A stretch of 64,000 bases of DNA from Mobula hypostoma (Eukaryota). The stretch spans positions 122,576,001 to 122,640,000 of the forward strand of contig NC_086097.1 of the NCBI RefSeq assembly GCF_963921235.1. Direction: 5' to 3'. Each line of letters opens with the position of its first letter. Position 1 is the first letter of the stretch. The position numbers were made by a program, and so were the translations under genes. Below are positions 3,701-52,979 of this stretch, piece after piece. The notes under the pieces were generated by a model that ran no database searches, had not been told where the DNA came from, and worked only from the letters and a program-made list of their open reading frames with translations.

Positions 3701-3815
3701 GGATATGGCGAGAAAGCAGGTATATTGAGTTGAGTGTGATCCAGAATCAGCCGTGGTGGAAGGGTGGAGCAGACTCGATGGGCTGAATGGCCTAATTCTG
3801 CTCCTGTGTCTATGG
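770..3815 (+). mobile_element. CR1 LINE, decayed: ORF1 esterase end, APE endonuclease and RT with an internal deletion
   Basis: Translates to QPEVVVHIGTNDIG and INAWIKNW...GFRFLDNW (SGNH esterase ORF1), LYLNACSI, MGDFN and KSLGPEGLHP, with a CR1 3' end. Sequence jumps from the HG motif to KIGG at ~2905. Many stops. Confidence 0.9.
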
Positions 3816-8421: not shown

Positions 8422-10458
8422 AACATAGAATAGTACAGCACATTACAGGCCCTTCAGCCCACAATGTTGTGCCGACCCTTAAACCCTGCCTCCCATAGAC
8501 CCCCCCACCTTAAATTCCTCCATATACCTGTCTAGCAGTCTCTTAAATTTCACTAGTGTATCTGCCTCCACCACTGACTCAGGCAGTGCATTCCATGCAC
8601 CAACCACTCTCTGAGTAAAAAACCTTCTTCTAATATCCCCCTTGAACTTCCCACCCCTTACCTTAAAGCCATGTCGTCTTGTATTGAGCAGTGGTGCCCT
8701 GGAGAAGAGGCACTGGCTGTCCACTCTATCTATTCCTCTTAATATCTTGTATACCTCTATCATGTCTCCTCTCATCCTCCTTCTCTTCAAAGAGTAAAGC
8801 CCTAGCTCCCTTAATCTCTGATCATAATGCATACTCTCTAAACCAGGCAGCATCCTGGTAATTCTCCTCTGTACCCTTTCCAATGCTTCCACATCCTTCC
8901 TATAGAGAGGCGACCAGAACTGGACATAGTACTCCAAGTGTGACCTAACCAGAGTTTTATAGAACTGCATCATTACCTCGCGACTCTTAAACTCTATCCC
9001 TCAACTTATGAAAGCTAACACCCCATAAGCTTTCTTAACTACCCTATCTGCCTGTGAGGCAACTTTCAGGGATCTGTGGACATGTATCCCCAGATCCCTC
9101 TGCTCCTCCAGACTACCAAGTATCCTGCCATTTACTTTGTACTCTGCCTTGGAGTTTATCCTTCCAAAGTGTACCACCTCACACTTCTCCGGGTTGAACT
9201 CCATCTGCCACTTCTCAGCCCACTTCTGCATCCTATCAATGTCCCTCTGCAATCTTCGACAATCCTCTGCACTATCTACAACACCACCAACCTTTGTGTC
9301 GTCTGCAAACTTGCCAACCCACCCTTCTACCCCCACATCCAGGTCATTAATAAAAATCACGAAAAGTAGAGATCCCAGAACAGATCCTTGTGGGACACCA
9401 CTAGTCACAATCCTCCAGTCTGAATGTACTCCCTCCACCATGACCCTCTGCTTTCTGCAGGCAAGCCAATTCTGAATACACCTGGCTAAACTTCCCTGGA
9501 TCCCATGCCTTTCAACTTTCTGAATAAGCCTACCGTGTGGAACCTTGTCAAATGCCTTACTAAAATCCATGTAAGTCACATCCACTGCACTACCCTCATC
9601 TATATGCCTTGTCACCTCCTTAAAGAACTCTATCAGGTTTGTTAGACATGACCTGCCCTTCACAAAGCTATGCTGACTGTCCCTGATCAGACCATGATTC
9701 TCTAAATGCCCATAGATCCTATCTCTAAGAATCTTTTCCAACAGCTTTCCCACCACAGATGTAAGGCTCACTGGTCTATAATTACCCGGACTATCCCTAC
9801 TACCTTTTTTGAACAATGAGACAACATTCGCCTCCCTCCAATCCTCCAGTACCATTCCCCTGGAAAACGAGGACATAAAGATCCTAGCCAGAGGCTCAGC
9901 AATCTCTTCCCTCCCCTCATGGAGCAGCCTGGGGAATATCCTGTCAGGCCCTGGGGACTTATCCATCCTAATGTATTTTAACAACTCCAACACCTCCTCT
10001 CCCTTAATATCAACATGCTCCAGAACATCAACCTCACTCATATTGTCCTCACTGTCATAAAGTTCCCTCTCATTGGTGAATACCAAAGAGAAGTATTCAT
10101 TGAGGACCTCGCTCACTTCCACAGCCTCCAGGCACATCTTCCCACCTTTATCTCTAATCGGTCCTACCTTCACTCTTGTCATCCTTTTGCTCTTCAGATA
10201 ATTGAAGAATGCCTTGGGGTTTTCCTTTACCCTACTCGCCAAGGCCACCTCATGTCCCCTTCTTGCTCTCCTCAGTCCCTTCTTAAGCTCCTTTCTTGCT
10301 ACCCTATATTCCTCAATAGACCCATCTGATCCTTGCTTCCTAAACCTCATGTATGCTGCCTTCTTCCACCTGACTAGATTTTCCACCTCACTTGTCACCC
10401 ATGGTTCCTTCACCCTACCATTCTTTATCTTCCTCACCGGGACAAATTTATCCCTAAT
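8422..10458 (-). mobile_element. Young 5'-truncated CR1 LINE, ORF2 RT region with a single in-frame stop
   Basis: ORFs 9001-10560 and 8479-8973 are in frame, split by one TGA (CGA in the sister copy). Motifs NYRPVSLTS, DFSKAFD, GVPQGSVLG and FADD; ttctatgtt tail. Confidence 0.95.
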
Positions 10459-11244
10459 GATCTGTTGATCTGGACTTCCAGCATCTGTTGAATCTCTTGC
10501 ATTTTTCAGCATGAATCTTTTTTTCCCAAATGTTGATTTCAAGAAGTTATTCTGCTTCACTCATTTCCTCATCCTCCATACTAAAATCACAGATGCATGC
10601 TTCAATTATTTCTCCTTATATCATTTAATCTCTCCTCTCATTAATGCTGTCACATAAGTCTCCTTTGCTTCTCAGTAAACTTACCCATTTCTCTGCATTT
10701 TAACATTGCCTTATTTCCCTAGCTCAGATGGAGACTCATCAATCTGAAATATCAGCCTTTTTTTCTGCACAGACGTTGCCTGTCCTTAATATTTCAATCT
10801 TGTTCCCATTTTTATCTTTAATGTTATTTACTTTTTGAAACGAGGGTACTGGATGTCATGCGCAGGAATTGAAGAACCAGCCTTAAATTAGAAACATGTC
10901 ATGAATAAATAACTGATGAAGATAAACATGGTTGTTCTGGGGTCGGTACTAAACAAGTCCCTGATGTGGGAATATGAATTTAAGTTACAAGATATTGTCA
11001 AATAATAAGCCGAGGTATGGCGGTTAAATTGGCTATGAAGAAGTCGAGTCCTCTCTCCACTATAATGATATAATAAGAAACCACAGTTAAACGAACACTG
11101 ACTGTCACAAGATTACTGATCCATCCAAAATCAGCAATTGCTGAAAATCTGATCTAAACAGAAACAATAAGCAGGTCAGGCAGGATCTGTGCAGAGAGAA
11201 AGAGAGTTAACCTTTCAAGTTAATGACATAACCCTTCTCGATGC

Positions 11245-14361: not shown

Positions 14362-16248
14362 ATATTGAAACATTGCATGTGTGATTCTCAACTTGAGAGC
14401 TCAATAAATCCTGACTAATTTTTAAAAGTGATTGGAATTGCCCATAAAGTGCAAGAGATGGTATCATTCTACATGTCTCAAACATCAAGAAGTTGAAAGT
14501 ATATTGTAAGATGAAAATGTGGCTTGCTGCACAAAATAATTTTCTGCACAGTTTCTCTCTATTAAATGAATGTTATATGCACCAACATAAAGCAAGGAAT
14601 ATATATTCTCTGAAGAGACAAAGGAAAGTGAAAATGGGAACATAATATAAATACTGCAAGTTATTATAATGCTCAAAAAATATTTGAACTAGGGAATACA
14701 GAAGGAGAAGGGGCACCAGAGTGAGGTGATAGGCAGGTGAGGAGAAGAGACCAGCATCATTAAATTCAACATAACATTGTGCAGAAACTGAGGACATTTT
14801 TCAGTGAGTGTTTGGCTGAAGATCAATGGAGTATATTTTAAGACATGCTGCAGAGTATTTCAGAGAGTGAAGATTTGGTACTGTGAACCAAGCTAAACCA
14901 GGAATTGAAATAAATATCAAGATATATGAAAATAAAAATGGCAAGTTAAATTCAGTGAAGCCTTTCGGGGAAGTGCAAGGAAATTCAATGGGGAGTACAA
15001 GAGATTTCAGGAGCATGTTAGCAGTGGTTAAAAGGGGCAAAAAAAAAGAATTTGGTACTAAGAGCTGCTGATACAAACCATTACGTGAAACTTTTCCATT
15101 ATAGTAAAACTGAGAGAGCTGTCAGAGAAAAAGATCAAAATCTTAGCAGATATTAATGGGGGATAAAGCTGTACTTTTAAATACCGTATGTTAATAGAAA
15201 ATTTTGCAGGCTAAAGGAACATTATCTTTCCAAAGAGTCTCTGAGGATCAGAAGTGCCCAATTTCATTTTGCCTACCAAACTTGATCTGAGACATATTCT
15301 ATCGGTCTCCACAACTGTTCTGAATATAATATACTGTTTAGTGTACTACTTAAGCCCAATGTGATGTTCACTTCAATGGCAGGCAGAGATAAATCTTAAG
15401 TAACAACCTATGGACTCAAATCTCATTTTAAACTCAACGGCAGGACCTGATTATCATTCAGCAGGTTTTACCCTCACGTATTTCCTGCTGGCCTCACAGG
15501 TTCAGTGCTACTGCATTAAAACTGTGTTCTCTGCTTTATGTTATATGTTCTATGCTCTAAAAACAGGGTTTTCTTGCAGTTGTCCAAAGCCAATGTTCCC
15601 AGGACAACATGGTCTAAGATAGCATGAGTAGTGGTGAAGGGGTTGATAGGAGGTCAGATTTAGTTTGTAGGACAGTGTTCATGAGTTGGTAAAGTAGACA
15701 GAACATTGGCAGATGGAACTTAATCCTGGTATGTGTGAGGTGATCCATTTTGGAAGGAATGTTAGTTAAAGTAAACAATGCATTTTTCTGTGTTTTTATG
15801 TACACATTACAAATAAGCAAGATTTCAAAGTACATTTATTATCAAAGTACATTTATTTGTTATTGTATGGAGTATACAACCCTGAGATTCATCCCACAGA
15901 CAGCCACAAAACAAAGAAAAACCATGGAACCTGTTCAAAGAAAAGCATCAAACCCCCAACACACACAGAAAAAGAACAAATTATGCAAAAGGCAAAGAGA
16001 GATGAATGGAAAACACAGAATACAAAACACCAGGCCACAAAGTCATCAAAAGAGTCCCGGGATATTCAGTCCAGCTCAGCTCAGCCTAACCCTCCTCTGT
16101 GTCTTCGCAATGTGCAAGTTGCAGAGCTAGTCCACCTTGATCAAAAACACACAAAGTAGCAACAAAAAGTAGTAACCAGAAACCAGAGTCTTGAACCTTG
16201 ATCTTTCGAAGATAGATAGAACATAGACATCAACAGCACATTACAGGC

Positions 16249-17429
16249 TTTTCATTGACTACAGCTCTGCCTTTAATACCATCATTCCAAATAAACTGAT
16301 TCCTAAGCTCCAGATCCTGGGCCTTGGCACTCAGATCTGCAGCTGGATCTTCAACTTCCTCACAGACAGGACCCAGGCTGTAAAAATAGGGGACAAGCTC
16401 TTCTCTACAATCTCTCTGAGCACCGGTGCCCCACAAGGCTGTGTACTCAGCCCCCTGCTGTACTCACTGTACACCCATGATTGTGTAGCCAAGTTTCCAT
16501 CGAACTCAATATATAAGTTTGCTGATGATATCACTATTGTAAGCCGTATCTCAGGTAATGATGAGTTTGAGTACAGAGAGGAAATTAAGAACCTGGTGAC
16601 ATGGTGTGAAGACAATAACCTATCCCTCAACATCAGCAAGATGAAGGAATTGGTTGTTGACTTCAGAAGGAGTAGTGGACTGCACGACCCCATTTACATA
16701 GGTGGTGTGCAAGTGGAACAGGACAAAAGTTTTAAGTTCCTCAGGGTCAATATCACAAATGTCCTGACTTGGTCCAACCAAGCAGAGTTCACTGCCAAGA
16801 AGGCCCACCAGCACCTTTACCTCCTGAGAAAGCTAAAGAAACTTGGCCTGTCCTCTAAAACCCTCACTAATTTTTATAGACATACCGTGGAAAGCATTCT
16901 TCTAGGGTGCATCGCAACCTGGTATGGAAGTTGTCCTGTCCAAGACTGGAAGAAGCTACAGAAGATCGTGAACACAGCCCAGCACATCACACAAACCAAT
17001 CTTCCATCCGTGGACTCACTTTACACCGCATGCTGTCGGAGCAGTGCTGCCAGGATAATCAAAGACATGACTCACCCAGCCAACACACTTTTTGTCCCTC
17101 TTCCCTCCGAGAGAAGGCTCAGGAGCTTGAAGACTCGTACAGCCAAATCTGGGAACAGCTTCTTTCCAACTGTGATAAGACTGCTGAATGGATCCTGACC
17201 CAGATCTGGGCCGTACCCTCCAAACATCCAGACCTGCCTCTCGGTTTTTTTGCACTACCTTACTTTCCATTTTCTATTTTGTATTTATGACTTATAATTT
17301 AAATTTTTTAAATTTAATATTGATTTGTACTCCAGGGAGCGCGAAGCGCAGAATCAAATATCGCTGTGATGATTGTACGCTCTAGTATCAATTGTTTGGC
17401 GACAATAAAGTATAAAGTATAAAGTATAA
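16249..17429 (+). mobile_element. Young 5'-truncated Rex1/Babar-type LINE; uninterrupted RT C-terminal frame 16251-17198
   Basis: [33 protein letters not shown] and KFADD in one stop-free frame; (taaagta)n tail; nested in a CR1 3' tail. Confidence 0.9.
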
Positions 17430-20400: not shown

Positions 20401-20674
20401 CTCTTCTGGGACACACTATAGATGCTATTAAAACAAAAACTTCATGCCATCTTAACAGTTTATTCCCCCACCCCGCCCCAACCACTCTAGTTAACATCCC
20501 TTCCATGCCCTCAATCTCTGCACTGCTCTGTAAACATTTTAAACTACATTTTATAATGCCGCTTACATTGTAAATACATGCTGGTATTAATGTATTTATG
20601 CACATTTTATTCTATATCTGTACTTTAACCTCTAAGTTTATTTTATGTAATTCATTATTCTTTATAATTGTTGA

Positions 20675-21245
20675 GGGGTGTATGGGGTGTCAGGGAGGGG
20701 TAGCACCTCTGGTGGGGGAACATGTCGCGTCCTTTTCAGGGCGGTTAGTCCACCTTTGGTCCCCACCTGGCACTCAGCTCTCACCTGTGGCTCCCCGTAG
20801 CTGTTTGCATGCGACAGCGGCCACACCCTGGGCAACGGCTTCGACAAGCCGGCTAAACCAGGTGAGGGTAGCCGACGGGTCTCAAACCCTCGGTGAGATA
20901 GGGAGTTGTCTATCCCAGCATGTGAAGACAGACTCCGGCGGATTGAGCAGACGAGACCAGTGGAAGGTCCAACGGTCAAGAAGGCGGTCTCTGCAAGCGT
21001 CATGGAATATGTAGAGCAGGACAAGACACAGAAGACGTCCTGGTCATCCACTGCGCCTAGTCCCATCTCCAGCCGTCTAGACTCTGTCTTGCCACTGGAT
21101 CCAGATGGGAATTGGGAAGAGAGAGTGAGGCTGACGCTGCGCAACTCTCCCTCACTTAAATCCAAATCACGCGCTAGCCTCAACACCATCATTATGGTGT
21201 CGAGGTCCTCATCGACGTCAACGATGGACGAACAACAACAACAAC
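20675..21245 (+). mobile_element. Non-coding RTE-type retroposon with a 5' HDV-like ribozyme, copy 1
   Basis: 11-bp TSD ataattgttga (20664-20674 and 21246-21256), (aac)n tail, second copy at 50200-50755. Confidence 0.9.
20684..20868 (+). ncRNA. Predicted HDV-like self-cleaving ribozyme
   Basis: P1 ggggtgt/acaccct with G1-U wobble; P2 ctcacctg/caggtgag; P3 ggc/gcc; L3 tcc able to pair with gg (P1.1); P4 cggctt/aagccg; J4/2 g-C-taa. Confidence 0.8.
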
Positions 21246-22842
21246 ATAATTGTTGAAAGTTGCTGTTTTTGTTGCATGTCACACCCTGACCAACACACCA
21301 CAGCAAGTTCCTAATGCATGTAAATGTACTGTATATGGCAAATAAAGTTGGTCTTTGATCCTTGAAAGGTGATTAGAAAAGTTAAAAATAATGCAAATTG
21401 GATATTGCAACTCCATAAGTTAATGGAAAAGTAACATTGAATACTTGGGTTATGGAACTAAAGCAGATCAATGAAAACAGGACGCATATCAACCATTAGC
21501 TAACTGAATGAGGGATTAGATTCTAACTGATAAATGGGCTACTCAAACTGAGCATAAAATGAACTACAGGATGAACTCAATGCATCAAGCAGCATCTGAG
21601 GAGGGTAAAGAATGGCTAATGCTTTCAGTTGAGACCCTGAATCAGAACTGGGAGTATAGAGAGGTAGCATGTTAGTGTAACACTACTACAGCACTGGCCC
21701 CATCTTCTCTGTGACCTTGTGTGTTTCCTCTGGGTGCTCTGGTTTCCTCCCACATTCCAAACGTGTACGGGTCAGTAGCTTAATTGGTCGCATTGTTGTA
21801 ATTGAGCAGTGCGGACTCATTGGGCCAGAATTGCTTGTTACCGTGCTGGATCTCTAAAAAAACCAGATTGTCAGAATATAAAGTGAAAGGGAGGGGCGAG
21901 ACAGAAGCTGGAATTTGATAGATAAAAACAAGAAAAGGAGAACAAATCATTAGGCAGGTGGAGACTGGTGTGTGGGGGAAAGGGTTAAGATTAGGAACAG
22001 GGGCTTCTAGGAGTGGGTGGAACCAGAAACTGGTAGAATGATGGACTAAATCGAGGAGGCAATAGCAAAGGTGAACCAAGGAGATAGGGATGTGTGTAAT
22101 GGGCAGATGGAGACATTTGGGGGAGGGTGATGAGTCTAAATTACAAGGGAAAAACAAATGGGGAATGTGAATAGAGGAAGAGAAAATCTGGCCTGGACTT
22201 GGATCATTGCACGCAAAAGAATTTTTAAAATTATTGCCACATTGTGCACACGCTCTTAAAAATGTTTGTCACTCCTGGTTGAGTCTATGCATGGTTTCAC
22301 CAGTGTAGAGGAGGCCATACCATGAGCAGCAGATGCAGTGGACCAGGCTGAAAGGGGTTTATGTGAACCTCTACCTCACCTGGCCACACTTGCAGTGTGG
22401 CTTTTTGCAGCAGACTCGCTGTGTCCCATCTCCTACAAGCCTCACTATAAAACAGAAAGTCACAGGAGCACCACAAGATCAATTGTCCAGTCGTCCCCAG
22501 TACCTGTGGACGTTGTATAAAATCATATTAAAGTAGTAAAACATATAATATTAACCAAACCTGATTATGAACCTGTACAGACAATACACTGAGCCATTGA
22601 GGAAAAGTAATAATCTCAAAAGGCAAATATTTCCCATTCTTCTAAATTAGGAAGTCTGTTCACTCACAAAAACCTATGCCTTCTTTAGCAGTGGATTTAC
22701 CTATACGTGGCTGTCTCCAAAGAGAGTGTAATTTGGGAGGAAATACATGCAGGAATAGTAGTTCAAATTTTACAGCTAAATGTGTCTGTGCTGCTTCTTT
22801 GAATGAGCTTCCTTCAATTGTTATTAGTGCCCAAAAGTGTTC

Positions 22843-31635: not shown

Positions 31636-33980
31636 TAGAACATAGGACATAGAACATAGAATAGTACAGCATATTACAGGGCCTTCGACCCACAGTGTTG
31701 TACCAATCCTCAATCCCTGCCTCCCATATAACCCCCCCCCACCTTAAATTCCTCCATATACCTGTCCAGTAGTCTCTTAAACTTCACTAGTGTATCTGCT
31801 TCCACCAGTGCATTCCACGCACCAACCATTCTCTGAGTAAAAAACCTTCCTCTGATATCCCCCTTGAACTTCCCACCCCTTACATTAAAGCTATGTCCTC
31901 TTATATTGAGTACTGGCGGCCTGGGGAAGGGGCGCTGGCTATCCACTCTATCTATTCCTCTTATTATCTTGTACATCTCTATCATGTCTCCTCTCATCCT
32001 CCTTCTCTCCAAAGAGTGAAGCCCTAGCTCCCTTAATCTCTGATCATAATGCATACTCTCTAAACCAGGCAGCATCCTGGTAAATCTCCTCTGTACTCTT
32101 TCCAATGCTTCCACATCCTTCCTATAGTGAGGCGACCAGAACTGGACACAGTACTCCAGTTGTGGCCTAACCAGAGTTTTATAGAGCTGCATCGTTACAT
32201 CGCGACTCTTAAACTCTATCCCTCGACTTATGAAAACTAACACCCCATAAGCTATCTTAACTACCCTATCTACCTGTGAGGCAACTTTCAGGGATCTGTG
32301 GACACGTACCCACAGATCCCTCTGCTCCTCCACACTACCAAGTATCCTGCCATTTACTTTGTACTCTGCCTTGCCGAGTTTGTCCTTCCAAAGTGTACCA
32401 CCTCACACTTCTCCGGGTTGAACTCCATCTGCCACTTCTCAGCCCACTTCTGCATCCTATCAATGTCTCTCTGCAATCTTCGACAATCCTCTACACTACC
32501 TACAACACCACCAACCTTTGTGTCGTCTACAAACTTGCCAACCGACCCGTCTACCCCCACATCCAGGTCGTTAATAGAAATCACGAAAAGTAGAGGTCCC
32601 AGAACAGATTCTTGTGGGACACCACTAGTCACAATCCTCCAGTCTGAATGTACTCCCTCCACCATGACCCTCTGCCTTCTGCAGGCAAGCCAATTCTGAA
32701 TCTACCTGGCCAAACTTCCCTGGATCCCATGCCTTCTGACTTTCTGAATAAGCCTACCGTGTGGAACCTTGTCAAATGCCTTACTAAAATCCATATAGAC
32801 CACATCCACTGCACTACTCTCATCTATATGCCTGGTCACCTCCTCAAAGAACTCTATCAGGCTTGTTGGACACGATCTGCCCTTCACAAAGCCATTCTGA
32901 CTGTTCCTGATCAGACCATGATTCTCTAAATGCCCATAGATCTTTTCTCTAAGAATCTTTTCCAACAGCTTTCCCACCACAGATGTAAGGCTCACTGGTC
33001 TATAATTACCCGGACTATCCCTACTACCTTTTTTGAACAAGGGGACAACATTCGCCTCCCTCCAATCCTCTGGTATCATTCCCGTGGACAATGAGGACAT
33101 AAAGATCCTAGCCAGAGGCTCAGCAATCTCTTCCCTCGCCTCATGGAGCAGCCTGGGGAATATTCCATCAGGCCCCAAGGACTTATTCGTCTTAATGTAT
33201 TTTAACAACTCCAACACCCCCTCTCCCTTAATATCAACATGCTCCAGAACATCAACCTCACTCATATTGTCCTCACCATCATCAAGTTCCCTCTCATTGG
33301 AGGATACCGAAGAGAAGTATTCATTGGGGACCTCACTCACTTCCAGAGCCTCCAGGCACATCTTCCCACCTTTATTTCTAATCGGTCCTACCTTCACTCC
33401 TGTCATCCTTTTGTTCTTCACATAATTGAAGACCTTGGGGTTTTCTTTACCCTACTCGCCAAGGCCTTCTCATGCCCCCTTCTTGCTCTTCTCAGCCCCT
33501 TCTTAAGCTCCTTTCATGCTTCCCTATCTGAACTATCTGATCCTTGCTTCCTAAACCTCATGTATGCTGCCTTCTTCCACCTGACTAGATTTTCCACCTC
33601 ACTCGTCACCCATGGTTCCTTCACCCCACCATTCTTTATCTTCCTCACTGGGACAAATTTATCCCTAACATCCTACCAGAGATCGCTAAACATCGACCAC
33701 GTGTCCATAGAACATTTTCCTGCAAAAACATCATCCCAATTCACACCTGCAAGTTCTAGCCTAATAGCCTTGTAATTTGCGCTTCCCCAATTAAAAATTT
33801 TCTTGTCCTCTCTGATTCTATCCTTTTCCATGATAATGCTAAAGTCCAAGGAGCGGTGGTCTCTGTCCCCCAGATGCTCACCCACTGAGTGATCTGTGAC
33901 CTGACCCAGTTCATTACCTAGCACTAGATCTAGTATGGTATTCTCCCTAGTCGGCCTGTCCACATACTGTGACAGGAATC
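31636..33980 (-). mobile_element. Young 5'-truncated CR1 LINE, same subfamily as 8422-10458
   Basis: ORFs 31710-32333, 32354-32665, 32702-33421 and 33673-33963 are consecutive ORF2 pieces; (catagaa)n tail. Confidence 0.95.
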
Positions 33981-45759: not shown

Positions 45760-46170
45760 CAACACACAGAATGCTGGAGGAACTCATCGGGTTGGACAGC
45801 ATCCCTGGAAGTGAATAGATAGTTGATGTTTCAGGCCAAGACCCTTCTTCAGGACTGAGAAGGTAGGGGGAAGGCACCAGAATAAAATGATGGGGAGGAA
45901 GGGAAGGAGACTAACTGAAAGGTAAATTTTTCCCACCCACCTGGTTTTACTTATCACCTTCCAGCTAGCTTCCTTCCACACCGCCCCCACCACCCACCAC
46001 ACCATTTTTTTCTGGCGTCTTCTCTCTTCCTTCTCAGTCCTGAAGAAAGATCTCGGCCCGAAACTTCGACTATCTATTCATTTCCATAGATGCTGCCTGA
46101 CCTGCTGAGTTCCTCCAGCATTTTGTGTGTGCGGCTTTGGATTTGTAGTATCTGCAGACTTCTATGTTGA
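45760..46170. mobile_element. Two inverted Penelope-like pLTRs, each with a hammerhead motif
   Basis: Minus copy ~45760-45920 and plus copy ~45930-46170; cores ctgaaga...gaaac. Confidence 0.8.
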
Positions 46171-50199: not shown

Positions 50200-50755
50200 T
50201 GGTTGTTCGTCCATCGTTGACGTCGATGAGGACCTCAACACCATTAAGATGGTGTCAAGACTAACACGTGATTTGGATTTAGGTGAGGGAGAGATGCGCA
50301 GCGTCAGCCTCACTCTCTCTTCCCAATTCCCATCTGGATCCAGTGGCAAGACAGAGTCTAGACGGCTGGAGATGGGACTAGGCGCAATGGATGACCAGGA
50401 CGTCTTCTGTGTCTTGTCCTGCTCTACACGTTCCATGACGCTTGCAGAGACCGCCTTCTTGACCGTTGGACCTTCCATAGGTCTCGTCCGCTCAATCCGC
50501 CTGAGTCTGTCTTCACATGCTGGGATAGACAACACCCTATCTCACCGAGGGTTTGAGACCCGTCGGCTACCCTCACCTGGTTTAGCCGGCTTGTCGAAGC
50601 CGTTGCCCAGGGTGTGGCCGCTGTCGTATGCAAACAGCTACGGGGAGCCACAGGTGAGAGCTGAGTGCCAGGTGGGGACCAAAGGTGGACTAACCGCCCT
50701 GAAAAGGACGCGACATGTTCCCCCACCAGAGGTGCTACCCCTCCCTGACACCCCA
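50200..50755 (-). mobile_element. Non-coding RTE-type retroposon with a 5' HDV-like ribozyme, copy 2
   Basis: 8-bp TSD taatcagt (50192-50199 and 50756-50763); short aacaacca tail; cleanly splits the CR1 endonuclease coding sequence. Confidence 0.9.
50570..50754 (-). ncRNA. Predicted HDV-like ribozyme, copy 2
   Basis: All core pairings identical to copy 1; G1 at 50754, 1 nt inside the element end. Confidence 0.8.
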
Positions 50756-52979
50756 TAATCAGTACCTAGAAGTCCCAATGACAGAATGTGCAATACTTCA
50801 TCACCTATTAGAGAATGAGACAGGGCAGGTAGCATAAGTTTGTGTAGTGGAAGACTTGGCATCTAGTGATGATAATGCCATTAGTTTCAAAGTAAATATG
50901 GAAAAATACAGGTCTGCTCTGTGGCTTGAGATTCTAAATTGGAGAAAGGCGAATTTAGATGGCATATGGAAGGTTCTGGCAAGGATTGATTGGGAAAGGC
51001 TGTCTTCTGGCAAAGGTATACTTGGTAAATGGGAGAATATCAAAGATGAAATTTTGAGAGTATAAAGCTTGTATGTGCCTATCAGAATAAAAGGTAAAGA
51101 TAACAAGTGTGGGGAACCTTGGTTTTCAAGATATATTGAGGCTCTGGTTAAGGAAAAAAAGGAGGTGCATAGCAGGTATAGGCAGGTCGGAACAATTGAA
51201 GTACTTATGGAGCATAAGAAATGCAAGAGAACACTTAAGAAAGAAATCAGGAAGGCTAAAAGAAGTCATGAGGTTGCCCTAGCAGAGAAGGTGAAGGAGA
51301 ATCCTAAGAGCTTCTACAGATTTGTTAAGAGCAAAAGGATTGCAAGGGACAAAATTAGTCCTCTGGAAGATCAGTGGTGATTTATGCATGGAGCCAAAAG
51401 AGATGGGGGAAGTCTCGAGTGGACTTTTTGCATCTGTATTTACTTGGGAGACAGGCATAGAGTCCATAGATGTGAGGAAAAGCAGCAGTGAGGTAATGGA
51501 TCCTATATGGAATACAGAGGAGGAGATATTTTCTGCCTTGAGGAAAATTCAGGTGGATAAGTTGTTTCCTCGATCTCTGTGGGATGCATGTGCAGAAATT
51601 GTAGTGGCACTAGCAGAGATATTTAAATCATCCTTTGCAACAGGTGAGGTACCGGAGGACTGGAGGATAGATAATGTTCTGCTTTTTATGAAAGGTTCTA
51701 AAAATAAACCAAAAATTATAGGATAGTGAGGATGACATTAGCAGTGGGAAGATTAATGGAATGTGTTATAAGGGAATGGATATTTGAGCATTTGGATAGA
51801 CAGGGACTTATTAGGGATAGTCAGCATGGCTTTGTGTGTGGTGGGTCGTGACTAACCAATGTTATAGAGTTTTTCGAGGAAGTTACCAGAAAAGTTGATG
51901 AAGCAAGGCACTGAATGTTGTTTACATGGACCTTAGCAAGGCTTTTGACAAGGTCCTACATGGAAGCTTGGTCTAGAAGGTTCAGTTGCTCAGCATTCAA
52001 AGTGAGGTAGTAAACTGGATTAGACATTGACTTTGTGGGAGAAGCCAGAGCGTAGTAGTAGATGATTGCCTCTGTAACTGGAGGCCTGTGACTTAGTGGA
52101 GTATTGCAGGGATTGGTGCTGGATTCATTGCTGTTTGTCAGCTATATAGGCCATCAGGATGATAATTGGTTAAATGGATCAGTAAATTTGCAGATGCTAC
52201 CAAGATTGTGGGTGTAGTAGACAGCAAGGGAGACTATCAGAGCTTGAAGAGTACAGTAGAAGAAAGGGATCTGGGAATACAGGTCCATAGTTCAGTGAAA
52301 GTGGCAGCACATGTAGATAGGCTCGTAAAGATATGTTTGTACTTTTGGTAAGTTGGCCTTCATAAATCAAAGTATTGAGTACAGGTGTTGGGATGTTATG
52401 TTAAAGTCATATAAGACTTTGGAGAAGGCTAACTTGGAGTATTGTGTACAATTTTGGAAAGATGTATATAAGGTTGAAATGGTACACAGAAAATTCACAT
52501 GGATGTTGCTGGGGCTAGAGGACCTGAGTTATAAGGAAAGATTAGAACTTTATTCCTTGGAACCTAGAAGATTGAGAGGAGATTTGTTAGAGGTATACAA
52601 AATTATGAGGGGTATAGAAAGGGTAAATGTAAGCAGGCCTTTTCCACTGAGGTTGGGTGGGACTACAACCAGAGGTCATGGGTTGAGGGTGAAAAGTGAA
52701 AAGCTTAAGGGGAATATGAGGGGAAAATTCTTCACTCAGAAGCTCGTCAGAGTGTGAAATGAGCTGCCAGCTCAAGTGGTGCATGCAAGCTCAATTTCAG
52801 TGTTTAAGAGAAGCTTGGATAGGTACATGGATGGAAGGGATACGGAGCATTATTGTCTCTGTGCAGGTCGATGGGAGTAGGCAGTTTAAATGGTTTGACA
52901 CAGACTAGATGGGCTGAAGGGCCTGCTTCTGTGCTGTATGACTCTATGAATCTCTACAATAGGGAAGTTGAAGTCCTCC

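Follow-up and report, generated by a model that had tools for sequence, protein, structure and literature searches.

A predicted HDV-like ribozyme with a hairpin inserted in L3 at the 5' end of a MAR4-like RTE retroposon

A non-coding retroposon present in two copies in a 64,000-nt stretch of the Mobula hypostoma genome (the whole stretch is referred to here as the window) carries at its 5' end all of the core elements of an HDV-type ribozyme, in order, together with a 20-nt insert in L3 that is predicted to fold as a hairpin (Table 1). The region 20789–20822 reads GGC, TCCCCGTA, GCTGTT-TGCATGC-GACAGC, G and GCC, in which the 19-nt hairpin (20800–20818) comprises six pairs (GC, CG, UA, GC, UA and UG) and a 7-nt loop and is followed by the unpaired G20819; A20799 precedes the insert, and the GCC adjoining P1' comes after it. 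The extra L3 hairpin sequence described in an earlier note on this DNA is confirmed, and lies inside an otherwise complete predicted HDV-like fold. We consider it probable that the ribozyme would free the element RNA from host transcripts by cutting at G20675, that a partner RTE would copy this RNA, and that the L3 hairpin would be a tolerated peripheral helix. Comparisons with published systems refer to excerpts of the papers cited.

The element and its ribozyme core

The boundaries of copy A were observed directly as target-site duplications (TSDs), and copy B, on the opposite strand, is 96.6% identical to it over 553 nt. No third copy was found within the 64-kb window. Of the 19 differences between the copies, a single one falls in the first 185 of the 553 nt (P = 0.005). 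Copy B lacks the first P1 strand; the three bases upstream of copy B match 20681–20683, and this fits a short 5' truncation. The target of copy A is itself another repeat: X1 contigs (see below) join ∼20674 to ∼21266, representing element-free paralogues of the target site (flanks 20640–20674 and 21246–21290). An RT/endonuclease ORF is absent, as judged from the translations, which contain stops, and from two frames of the element that matched no Pfam family; the coding potential of a 236-aa minus-strand frame and of a 3' plus-strand frame was rejected for want of a Pfam match. No tRNA or 5S head was matched by Rfam in the element.

An RTE-type 3' end, a microsatellite tail and TSDs are all present. 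The block at 21031–21179, which was the sole part comparable, is ∼92% identical, counted by eye, to turtle RTE-11_PSi in the supplement of PMC5786205, and on this block the 5' part of the element comes from an RTE 5' UTR. Because of this 5'-UTR block and the similarity to an RTE 3' end, the element is, by its sequence, an internally deleted RTE of MAR4 build. MAR4_MD of opossum is a bipartite non-autonomous RTE with the shared block at 346–548, and the block is also found in the autonomous relatives RTE-2_CPB, RTE-3_PM, RTE-7_LCh and RTE-1_NV (Kojima 2018, PMC5786205). Like MAR4_MD and other bipartite RTEs, the element is ∼550–570 nt long, has no ORF, ends in a (CAA)n tail and fuses a 5'-UTR block to ∼45 nt of an RTE 3' end (PMC5786205); the block is offset by 357 nt here, 346 in MAR4_MD and 370 in RTE-11_PSi. 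The likeness to MAR4_MD and the RTE relatives is drawn through this downstream block, the first 190 nt of the relatives lying outside the comparison, and no ribozyme part of related RTEs was found in the paper supplements searched. The hosts of block-bearing RTEs, partly from Repbase name suffixes, are presumably painted turtle, alligator, coelacanth, lamprey, annelid and sea anemone. The element also occurs in sequencing runs of several organisms, and the cross-species similarity of 21031–21179 could stem from strong constraint or from a horizontal spread between aquatic vertebrates.

It is established that RTE and bipartite elements can carry ribozymes at their 5' ends (PMC5786205; PMC6765202), bipartite elements retain the LINE 5' end, and RTE ribozymes have been predicted (PMC5786205). 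A ribozyme-headed RTE derivative is an already known setting, in which the L3 hairpin is the variant feature; the present analysis adds its tie to the MAR4/RTE-11_PSi lineage, an explanation of why the upstream P1 strand wins, grounds for rejecting a register switch and, as a lead, the palindrome in the loop.

Consensus HDV and CPEB3 ribozymes have a G1 pair, a P1.1 of two C-G pairs, U20, G25, a 3-bp P3 joined to P1, and a J4/2 C followed by NAA (PMC8256844, PMC6326823, PMC3386971, PMC4836649), and all of these features are shared by the element. P1 would form 7 bp from G1, the first being G.U or G-C, and the 3-bp P3 (GGC/GCC, three Watson-Crick pairs) is joined without a linker to the P1 3' strand. 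P1.1 would pair C20793-C20794 with G20830-G20831, as read from the sequence alone; U20792 and G20797 are present; C20853 is followed by NAA; and a 6-bp P4 and a P2 of 10 bp that closes the outer pseudoknot are found. L3, in contrast, is 28 nt long versus 7–8 nt in the consensus. Because of this length, and because a canonical descriptor (7–8-nt L3) had no matches in the window, the ribozyme was filed as a putative variant that would work like the HDV-like family rather than as a canonical member. The sites named as expandable in the consensus are J1/2 and P4, not L3 (PMC8256844, Fig. 3 legend). At the base of P2 (20857–20859), the U-A pair beside a bulged C is reminiscent of the base-pair switch of antigenomic HDV (PMC2175327).

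Table 1. Coordinates of the two element copies and of the predicted ribozyme parts of copy A within the window.
Feature	Position	Strand	Remarks
Copy A, full length (571 nt): a MAR4-like bipartite retroposon of RTE type, non-coding	20675..21245	+	TSDs, family 5' end, RTE UTR homology, no Pfam match in two frames
5' TSD of copy A	20664..20674	+	11 bp, ATAATTGTTGA
3' TSD of copy A	21246..21256	+	11 bp
P1 5' strand	20675..20681	+	7 bp with 20823–20829; G20675 = predicted G1, cut just 5'
Second GGGGTGT, predicted sequestered in J1/2 helix	20684..20690	+	Helix probability 0.93–0.99
Structured J1/2 domain (P1.2), predicted	20685..20775	+	Outer helix 20685–20694/20766–20775; −45.8 kcal/mol; 3/500 shuffles as stable
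P2 5' strand	20778..20788	+	10 bp + U-A pair across bulged C20858
P3 5' strand, GGC	20789..20791	+	
Canonical part of L3	20792..20799	+	U20, C21-C22 (P1.1), two variable positions, G25 = 20797
Inserted hairpin + G20819	20800..20819	+	Stem 20800–20805/20813–20818, loop 20806–20812
P3 3' strand, GCC	20820..20822	+	
P1 3' strand, then P1.1 GG	20823..20831	+	20823–20829, then 20830–20831
P4 hairpin	20836..20851	+	6 bp
J4/2, then P2 3' strand	20852..20868	+	Putative catalytic C20853
Conserved RTE 5'-UTR block	21031..21179	+	138/150 identical to RTE-11_PSi 370–519, by eye
RTE 3'-UTR end + (CAA)n tail	21196..21245	+	By-eye similarity to RTE-1_PSi 3726–3767
Copy B	50200..50755	−	Hairpin at 50638–50620; 8-bp TSD at 50763–50756/50199–50192

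The inserted hairpin

The suggestion that fixed-length motif descriptors would miss this structural variant was borne out: the canonical descriptor matched the locus once the insert was removed in silico, and Rfam returned no ribozyme (HDV-type) match at gathering score or at E≤10, with one chance microRNA match at E 3.2. A descriptor with the L3 hairpin, written knowing the sequence, matched only the two copies in the window and nothing in 60 shuffled windows. Genome and viral pattern scans for relatives gave 0 matches, and blastn against plasmids and phages gave no match to the element. One metagenome locus (L001) was rejected as a chance pattern match that shares no more than 12 nt with the element; its contig (L001:1-2573) looks phage-like, with minus-strand open frames, and is unrelated to the element. 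No printed precedent for an HDV-like ribozyme with a helix in L3 was found in the literature searched, which lay apart from Ruminski 2011 and Webb & Luptak 2011.

Taken alone, the hairpin is modestly above chance. Its z score is −1.45, 18 of 200 dinucleotide shuffles fold as well and 364 of 10,000 mononucleotide shuffles are as stable, while an end-anchored 6-bp stem arose in ∼4% of shuffles, namely in 3,652 of 100,000 when mononucleotides were shuffled and in 829 of 20,000 when dinucleotides were. The whole ribozyme arrangement is beyond chance, as seen from the shuffled windows above. Folding with the pseudoknot strands kept open predicted the hairpin pairs at probabilities of 0.36–0.51 in copy A and 0.50–0.72 in copy B, shifted pairings competing. 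In folds of the four copy-A prefixes that include P1', P3 (GGC/GCC) had a probability of 0.57–0.77; the P3 5' strand could also mispair with J4/2.

The insert had been reported in both copies, with their sole ribozyme difference in its loop. From 20684 on this is accurate, the single difference over 20684–20870 being G20811A in the hairpin loop; it does not extend to the outer P1 strand, since copy B is without GGGGTGT 20675–20681. The loop position of G20811A was rejected as a sign of constraint on the stem, as one change placed at random would spare the 12 stem bases with a probability of 94%.

Family variation and the predicted cut site

Part of the element was contained in 20 of 24 sequencing runs and at least half of its words in 16 of the 24 (11 studies). 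Four of the 24 runs were compared, yielding 12,654 contig pieces (X1), 5 (X11), 2 (X18) and 0 (X21, raw reads); runs X19 and X20, with small word shares, were excluded, and depth was not equated with copy number. The hairpin region was present in all three runs that yielded pieces. At position 20829, C makes up 88% of X1 depth, so that the first pair becomes G1-C rather than G1.U, and 20795–20796 changes from CC to AA in ∼18% of X1 depth with the flanking core bases unchanged. These are the two L3 positions that vary in HDV-type ribozymes; a designed-ribozyme descriptor keeps U, C and G fixed around them. In one X11 contig, for which all 13 changes could be placed, the P2 5' strand, the P3 5' strand, U20, P1.1, G25 and the first five bases of the hairpin were free of changes; two of the changes turned J1/2 pairs into wobbles.

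A further 132 X1 contigs fit the element as far as 20828, beyond which their J1.1/4 and P4 differ from it; their loose-end consensus (agreement 0.7) shows P4 pair 2 changed from G-C to C-G. Because these contigs fit up to 20828, the hairpin region was likely retained in a subfamily with diverged P4 and J1.1/4. One X11 contig of this diverged type is without 20806 and 20814, which would remove one stem pair (depth 4; three changes unplaced), and the X1 row for 20806 holds no deletion matching it. No two-sided substitution in the hairpin stem was seen among the substitution rows listed, and no joint removing just the insert among the joints listed.

The heptamer GGGGTGT occurs twice, at 20675 and 20684 (9 nt apart), and either copy is able to pair with 20823–20829. 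In the predicted fold, the inner strand lies in a 10-bp helix that closes the 91-nt J1/2 domain, and freeing it would cost 11.8 kcal/mol against 10.1 for the P1 duplex. In prefix folds with P1' that end before P2 can close, P1 formed with the first strand at a probability of 0.16–0.47 and with the second at 0.00. The first G (20675) directly adjoins the TSD, mixed loose ends precede 20675 in 117 X1 contigs, and one X11 contig starts at 20675. Since the inner strand is predicted to be locked, the first G abuts the TSD, and the 5' end of the family falls at 20675, G20675 is likely G1. Not all copies reach 20675, as indicated by the drop in X1 depth (35,247 in the bin 20662–20683 versus 231,818 in the next) and by other X1 pieces that begin at 20680–20681. 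G20684 was rejected as the cut site of copy A, the second GGGGUGU being predicted to be locked in the J1/2 helix; copy B, lacking the outer strand, may be a poor cleaver on this prediction.

The predicted layout, consisting of P1, a 3-nt linker, P1.2, a 2-nt linker and a long P2, is that of drz-Agam-2, with its nested double-pseudoknot elements, large structured J1/2 (P1.2), short linkers and long P2 (Webb et al. 2016, PMC4908430); P2 is 10–11 bp here versus 12 in drz-Agam-2. The ribozyme predicted here is set apart from drz-Agam-2 by the 20-nt hairpin inserted in L3 and by the doubling of its P1 5' strand. The work of Ruminski 2011 is said to link ribozymes of the drz-Agam-2 type to RTE elements. 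Two possible P1 strands at the 5' end are also a feature of R2 ribozymes and R2 SIDEs, in which the upstream strand wins and the duplication is propagated (Eickbush et al. 2013, PMC3774820). The inner strand, however, would be silenced by J1/2 pairing here versus mutation in R2, and section 18 of PMC3774820 mentions no L3 insert in R2 ribozymes.

Mechanism, rival readings and wider meaning

Within the proposed mechanism, in which the ribozyme would cut the element RNA out of host transcripts and a partner RTE would then copy the freed RNA, the hairpin would project from the 3' edge of L3, occupying the site of its final nucleotide, a base that HDV bulges out. The matching nucleotide of antigenomic HDV, C29, is flexible or always bulged and is among the least conserved L3 positions (PMC3386971). 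Because it is bulged and poorly conserved there, we infer that the insert, which would sit after the last canonical L3 base, occupies the sole L3 position where an add-on is structurally plausible. A closed helix would bring its own ends together without disturbing U20.G25, P1.1 or the crossover between P3 and P1, and may favor an early closing of P3 as the RNA is transcribed. The main reason for keeping the stem would be that 20 inserted nt, left unpaired, would disrupt the core.

Both P3 registers set out in the earlier note can indeed be drawn: GGC/GCC, with the hairpin inside L3, and GGC/GCU, with a canonical 8-nt L3 and 20 nt looped out between P3 and P1. The latter brings L3 back to its usual length and fits a descriptor allowing an insert between P3 and P1, but this descriptor also gave 2 false matches in 60 shuffles. 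With P2 and P4 fixed (ViennaRNA; pseudoknots are outside the model, hence these are partial energies), GGC/GCC with the hairpin reached −28.5 kcal/mol and GGC/GCU −21.8, a gap of 6.7 kcal/mol, and the pairing probability of GGC/GCU was 0.00 in every fold computed. GGC/GCU would moreover destroy the hairpin and break into the P3-P1 crossover, a central feature of the core (bioRxiv 2022.09.22.508989), P1' coming immediately after L3/P3 (PMC3774820). On these models GGC/GCC, with P3 abutting P1', would be the preferred register because it is 6.7 kcal/mol better and keeps P3 joined directly to P1; GGC/GCU is highly improbable, and the earlier idea of a conformational switch between the two registers was abandoned on the same grounds. 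The insert might still toggle between an active fold and an inactive one (U20.G20819, or an extended P3 holding P1') and so slow or time cleavage, although we find this quite unlikely. These alternatives do carry predicted weight: G20819 can pair with U20792 (U20) at a probability of 0.34–0.47, in a form more stable by 2.4 kcal/mol that would rival the essential U20.G25, and the extended P3 (20786–20791/20820–20825), a competitor of P1 and P2, reaches 0.54–0.77 in copy A. Alternative pairings of this kind, however, are common in HDV-type folding, no trigger was identified, and the register switch stands at zero probability.

A further reading takes the insert to be a regulatory module, a source of kissing dimers or a protein-binding site that would gate cleavage or pair RNAs for retrotransposition. 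The copy-A loop holds the self-complementary GCAUGC, a 6-nt palindrome in a 7-nt loop, as well as UGCAUG, which we take to be the RBFOX motif, and it is unchanged in the X11 contig 20675–21169. Computed energies favor a self-duplex of the copy-A hairpin (−25.4 versus 2 × −5.2 kcal/mol; loop-loop duplex −8.0) and a homodimer of the core (−88.6 versus 2 × −36.8 kcal/mol). An L3 palindrome also pairs two ribozymes in crystals of the CPEB3 ribozyme, where it is 4 nt long, lies in the core loop and opens P1.1, whereas the palindrome here is 6 nt long and on an added hairpin, its dimerization being computed; the CPEB3 dimer, however, lacks catalytic competence, and the NMR evidence is mostly for a monomer (bioRxiv 10.1101/2022.09.22.508989). 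A 6-nt palindrome in a 7-nt loop arose in 3,065 of 100,000 random draws (∼3%), and was noticed here after the fact. Copy B breaks both the loop palindrome and UGCAUG, and the loop is changed elsewhere in X1, in one contig and as C20812T in 17% of depth (CpG-type decay). On balance we regard such a module as unlikely. That the ribozyme is inactive or irrelevant, with the insert disabling it or staying unpaired and the 5' end set otherwise, e.g. by an internal promoter, appears very unlikely: the weak hairpin statistics, the silence of Rfam and those copies that begin some bases downstream of 20675 (copy B as well as X1 pieces at 20680–20681) would accord with it, but every core nucleotide is intact, L3 varies only at two positions that are free in HDV, P4 carries a compensatory swap, the element's 5' end falls on G1, and differences are underrepresented in the 5' 185 nt.

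Should the ribozyme cleave, with the hairpin as a tolerated peripheral helix, then L3, the loop that builds the active site, would tolerate a whole helix at its 3' edge and would join J1/2 and P4 as a third site of natural expansion. Any descriptor census that fixes L3 would in that case have overlooked a high-copy class of ribozymes, perhaps one that spans the RTE and MAR4-type repeats of vertebrates, and the insert would mark a natural insertion point beside the active site for aptamer-controlled HDV ribozymes. A bolder proposal, to which we give little credence, is that a widespread RTE lineage carries an HDV-like subclass in which the self-complementary loop of the L3 hairpin is a docking module, through RNA kissing or a host protein, that controls the release of retroposon RNA. 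The lineage meant comprises the relatives of RTE-11_PSi (turtle) and of MAR4 (opossum); lamprey, coelacanth, alligator, annelid and sea anemone share the downstream block.

Elsewhere in the window, RT fragments (RVT_1) of other LINEs lie at 16227–17198 (+), 9001–10560 (−) and 32702–33451 (−), the first of which also matches ALKBH8_N, and a fold-back repeat at 45762–46130 has 137-nt arms that are 82% complementary and 95 nt apart.
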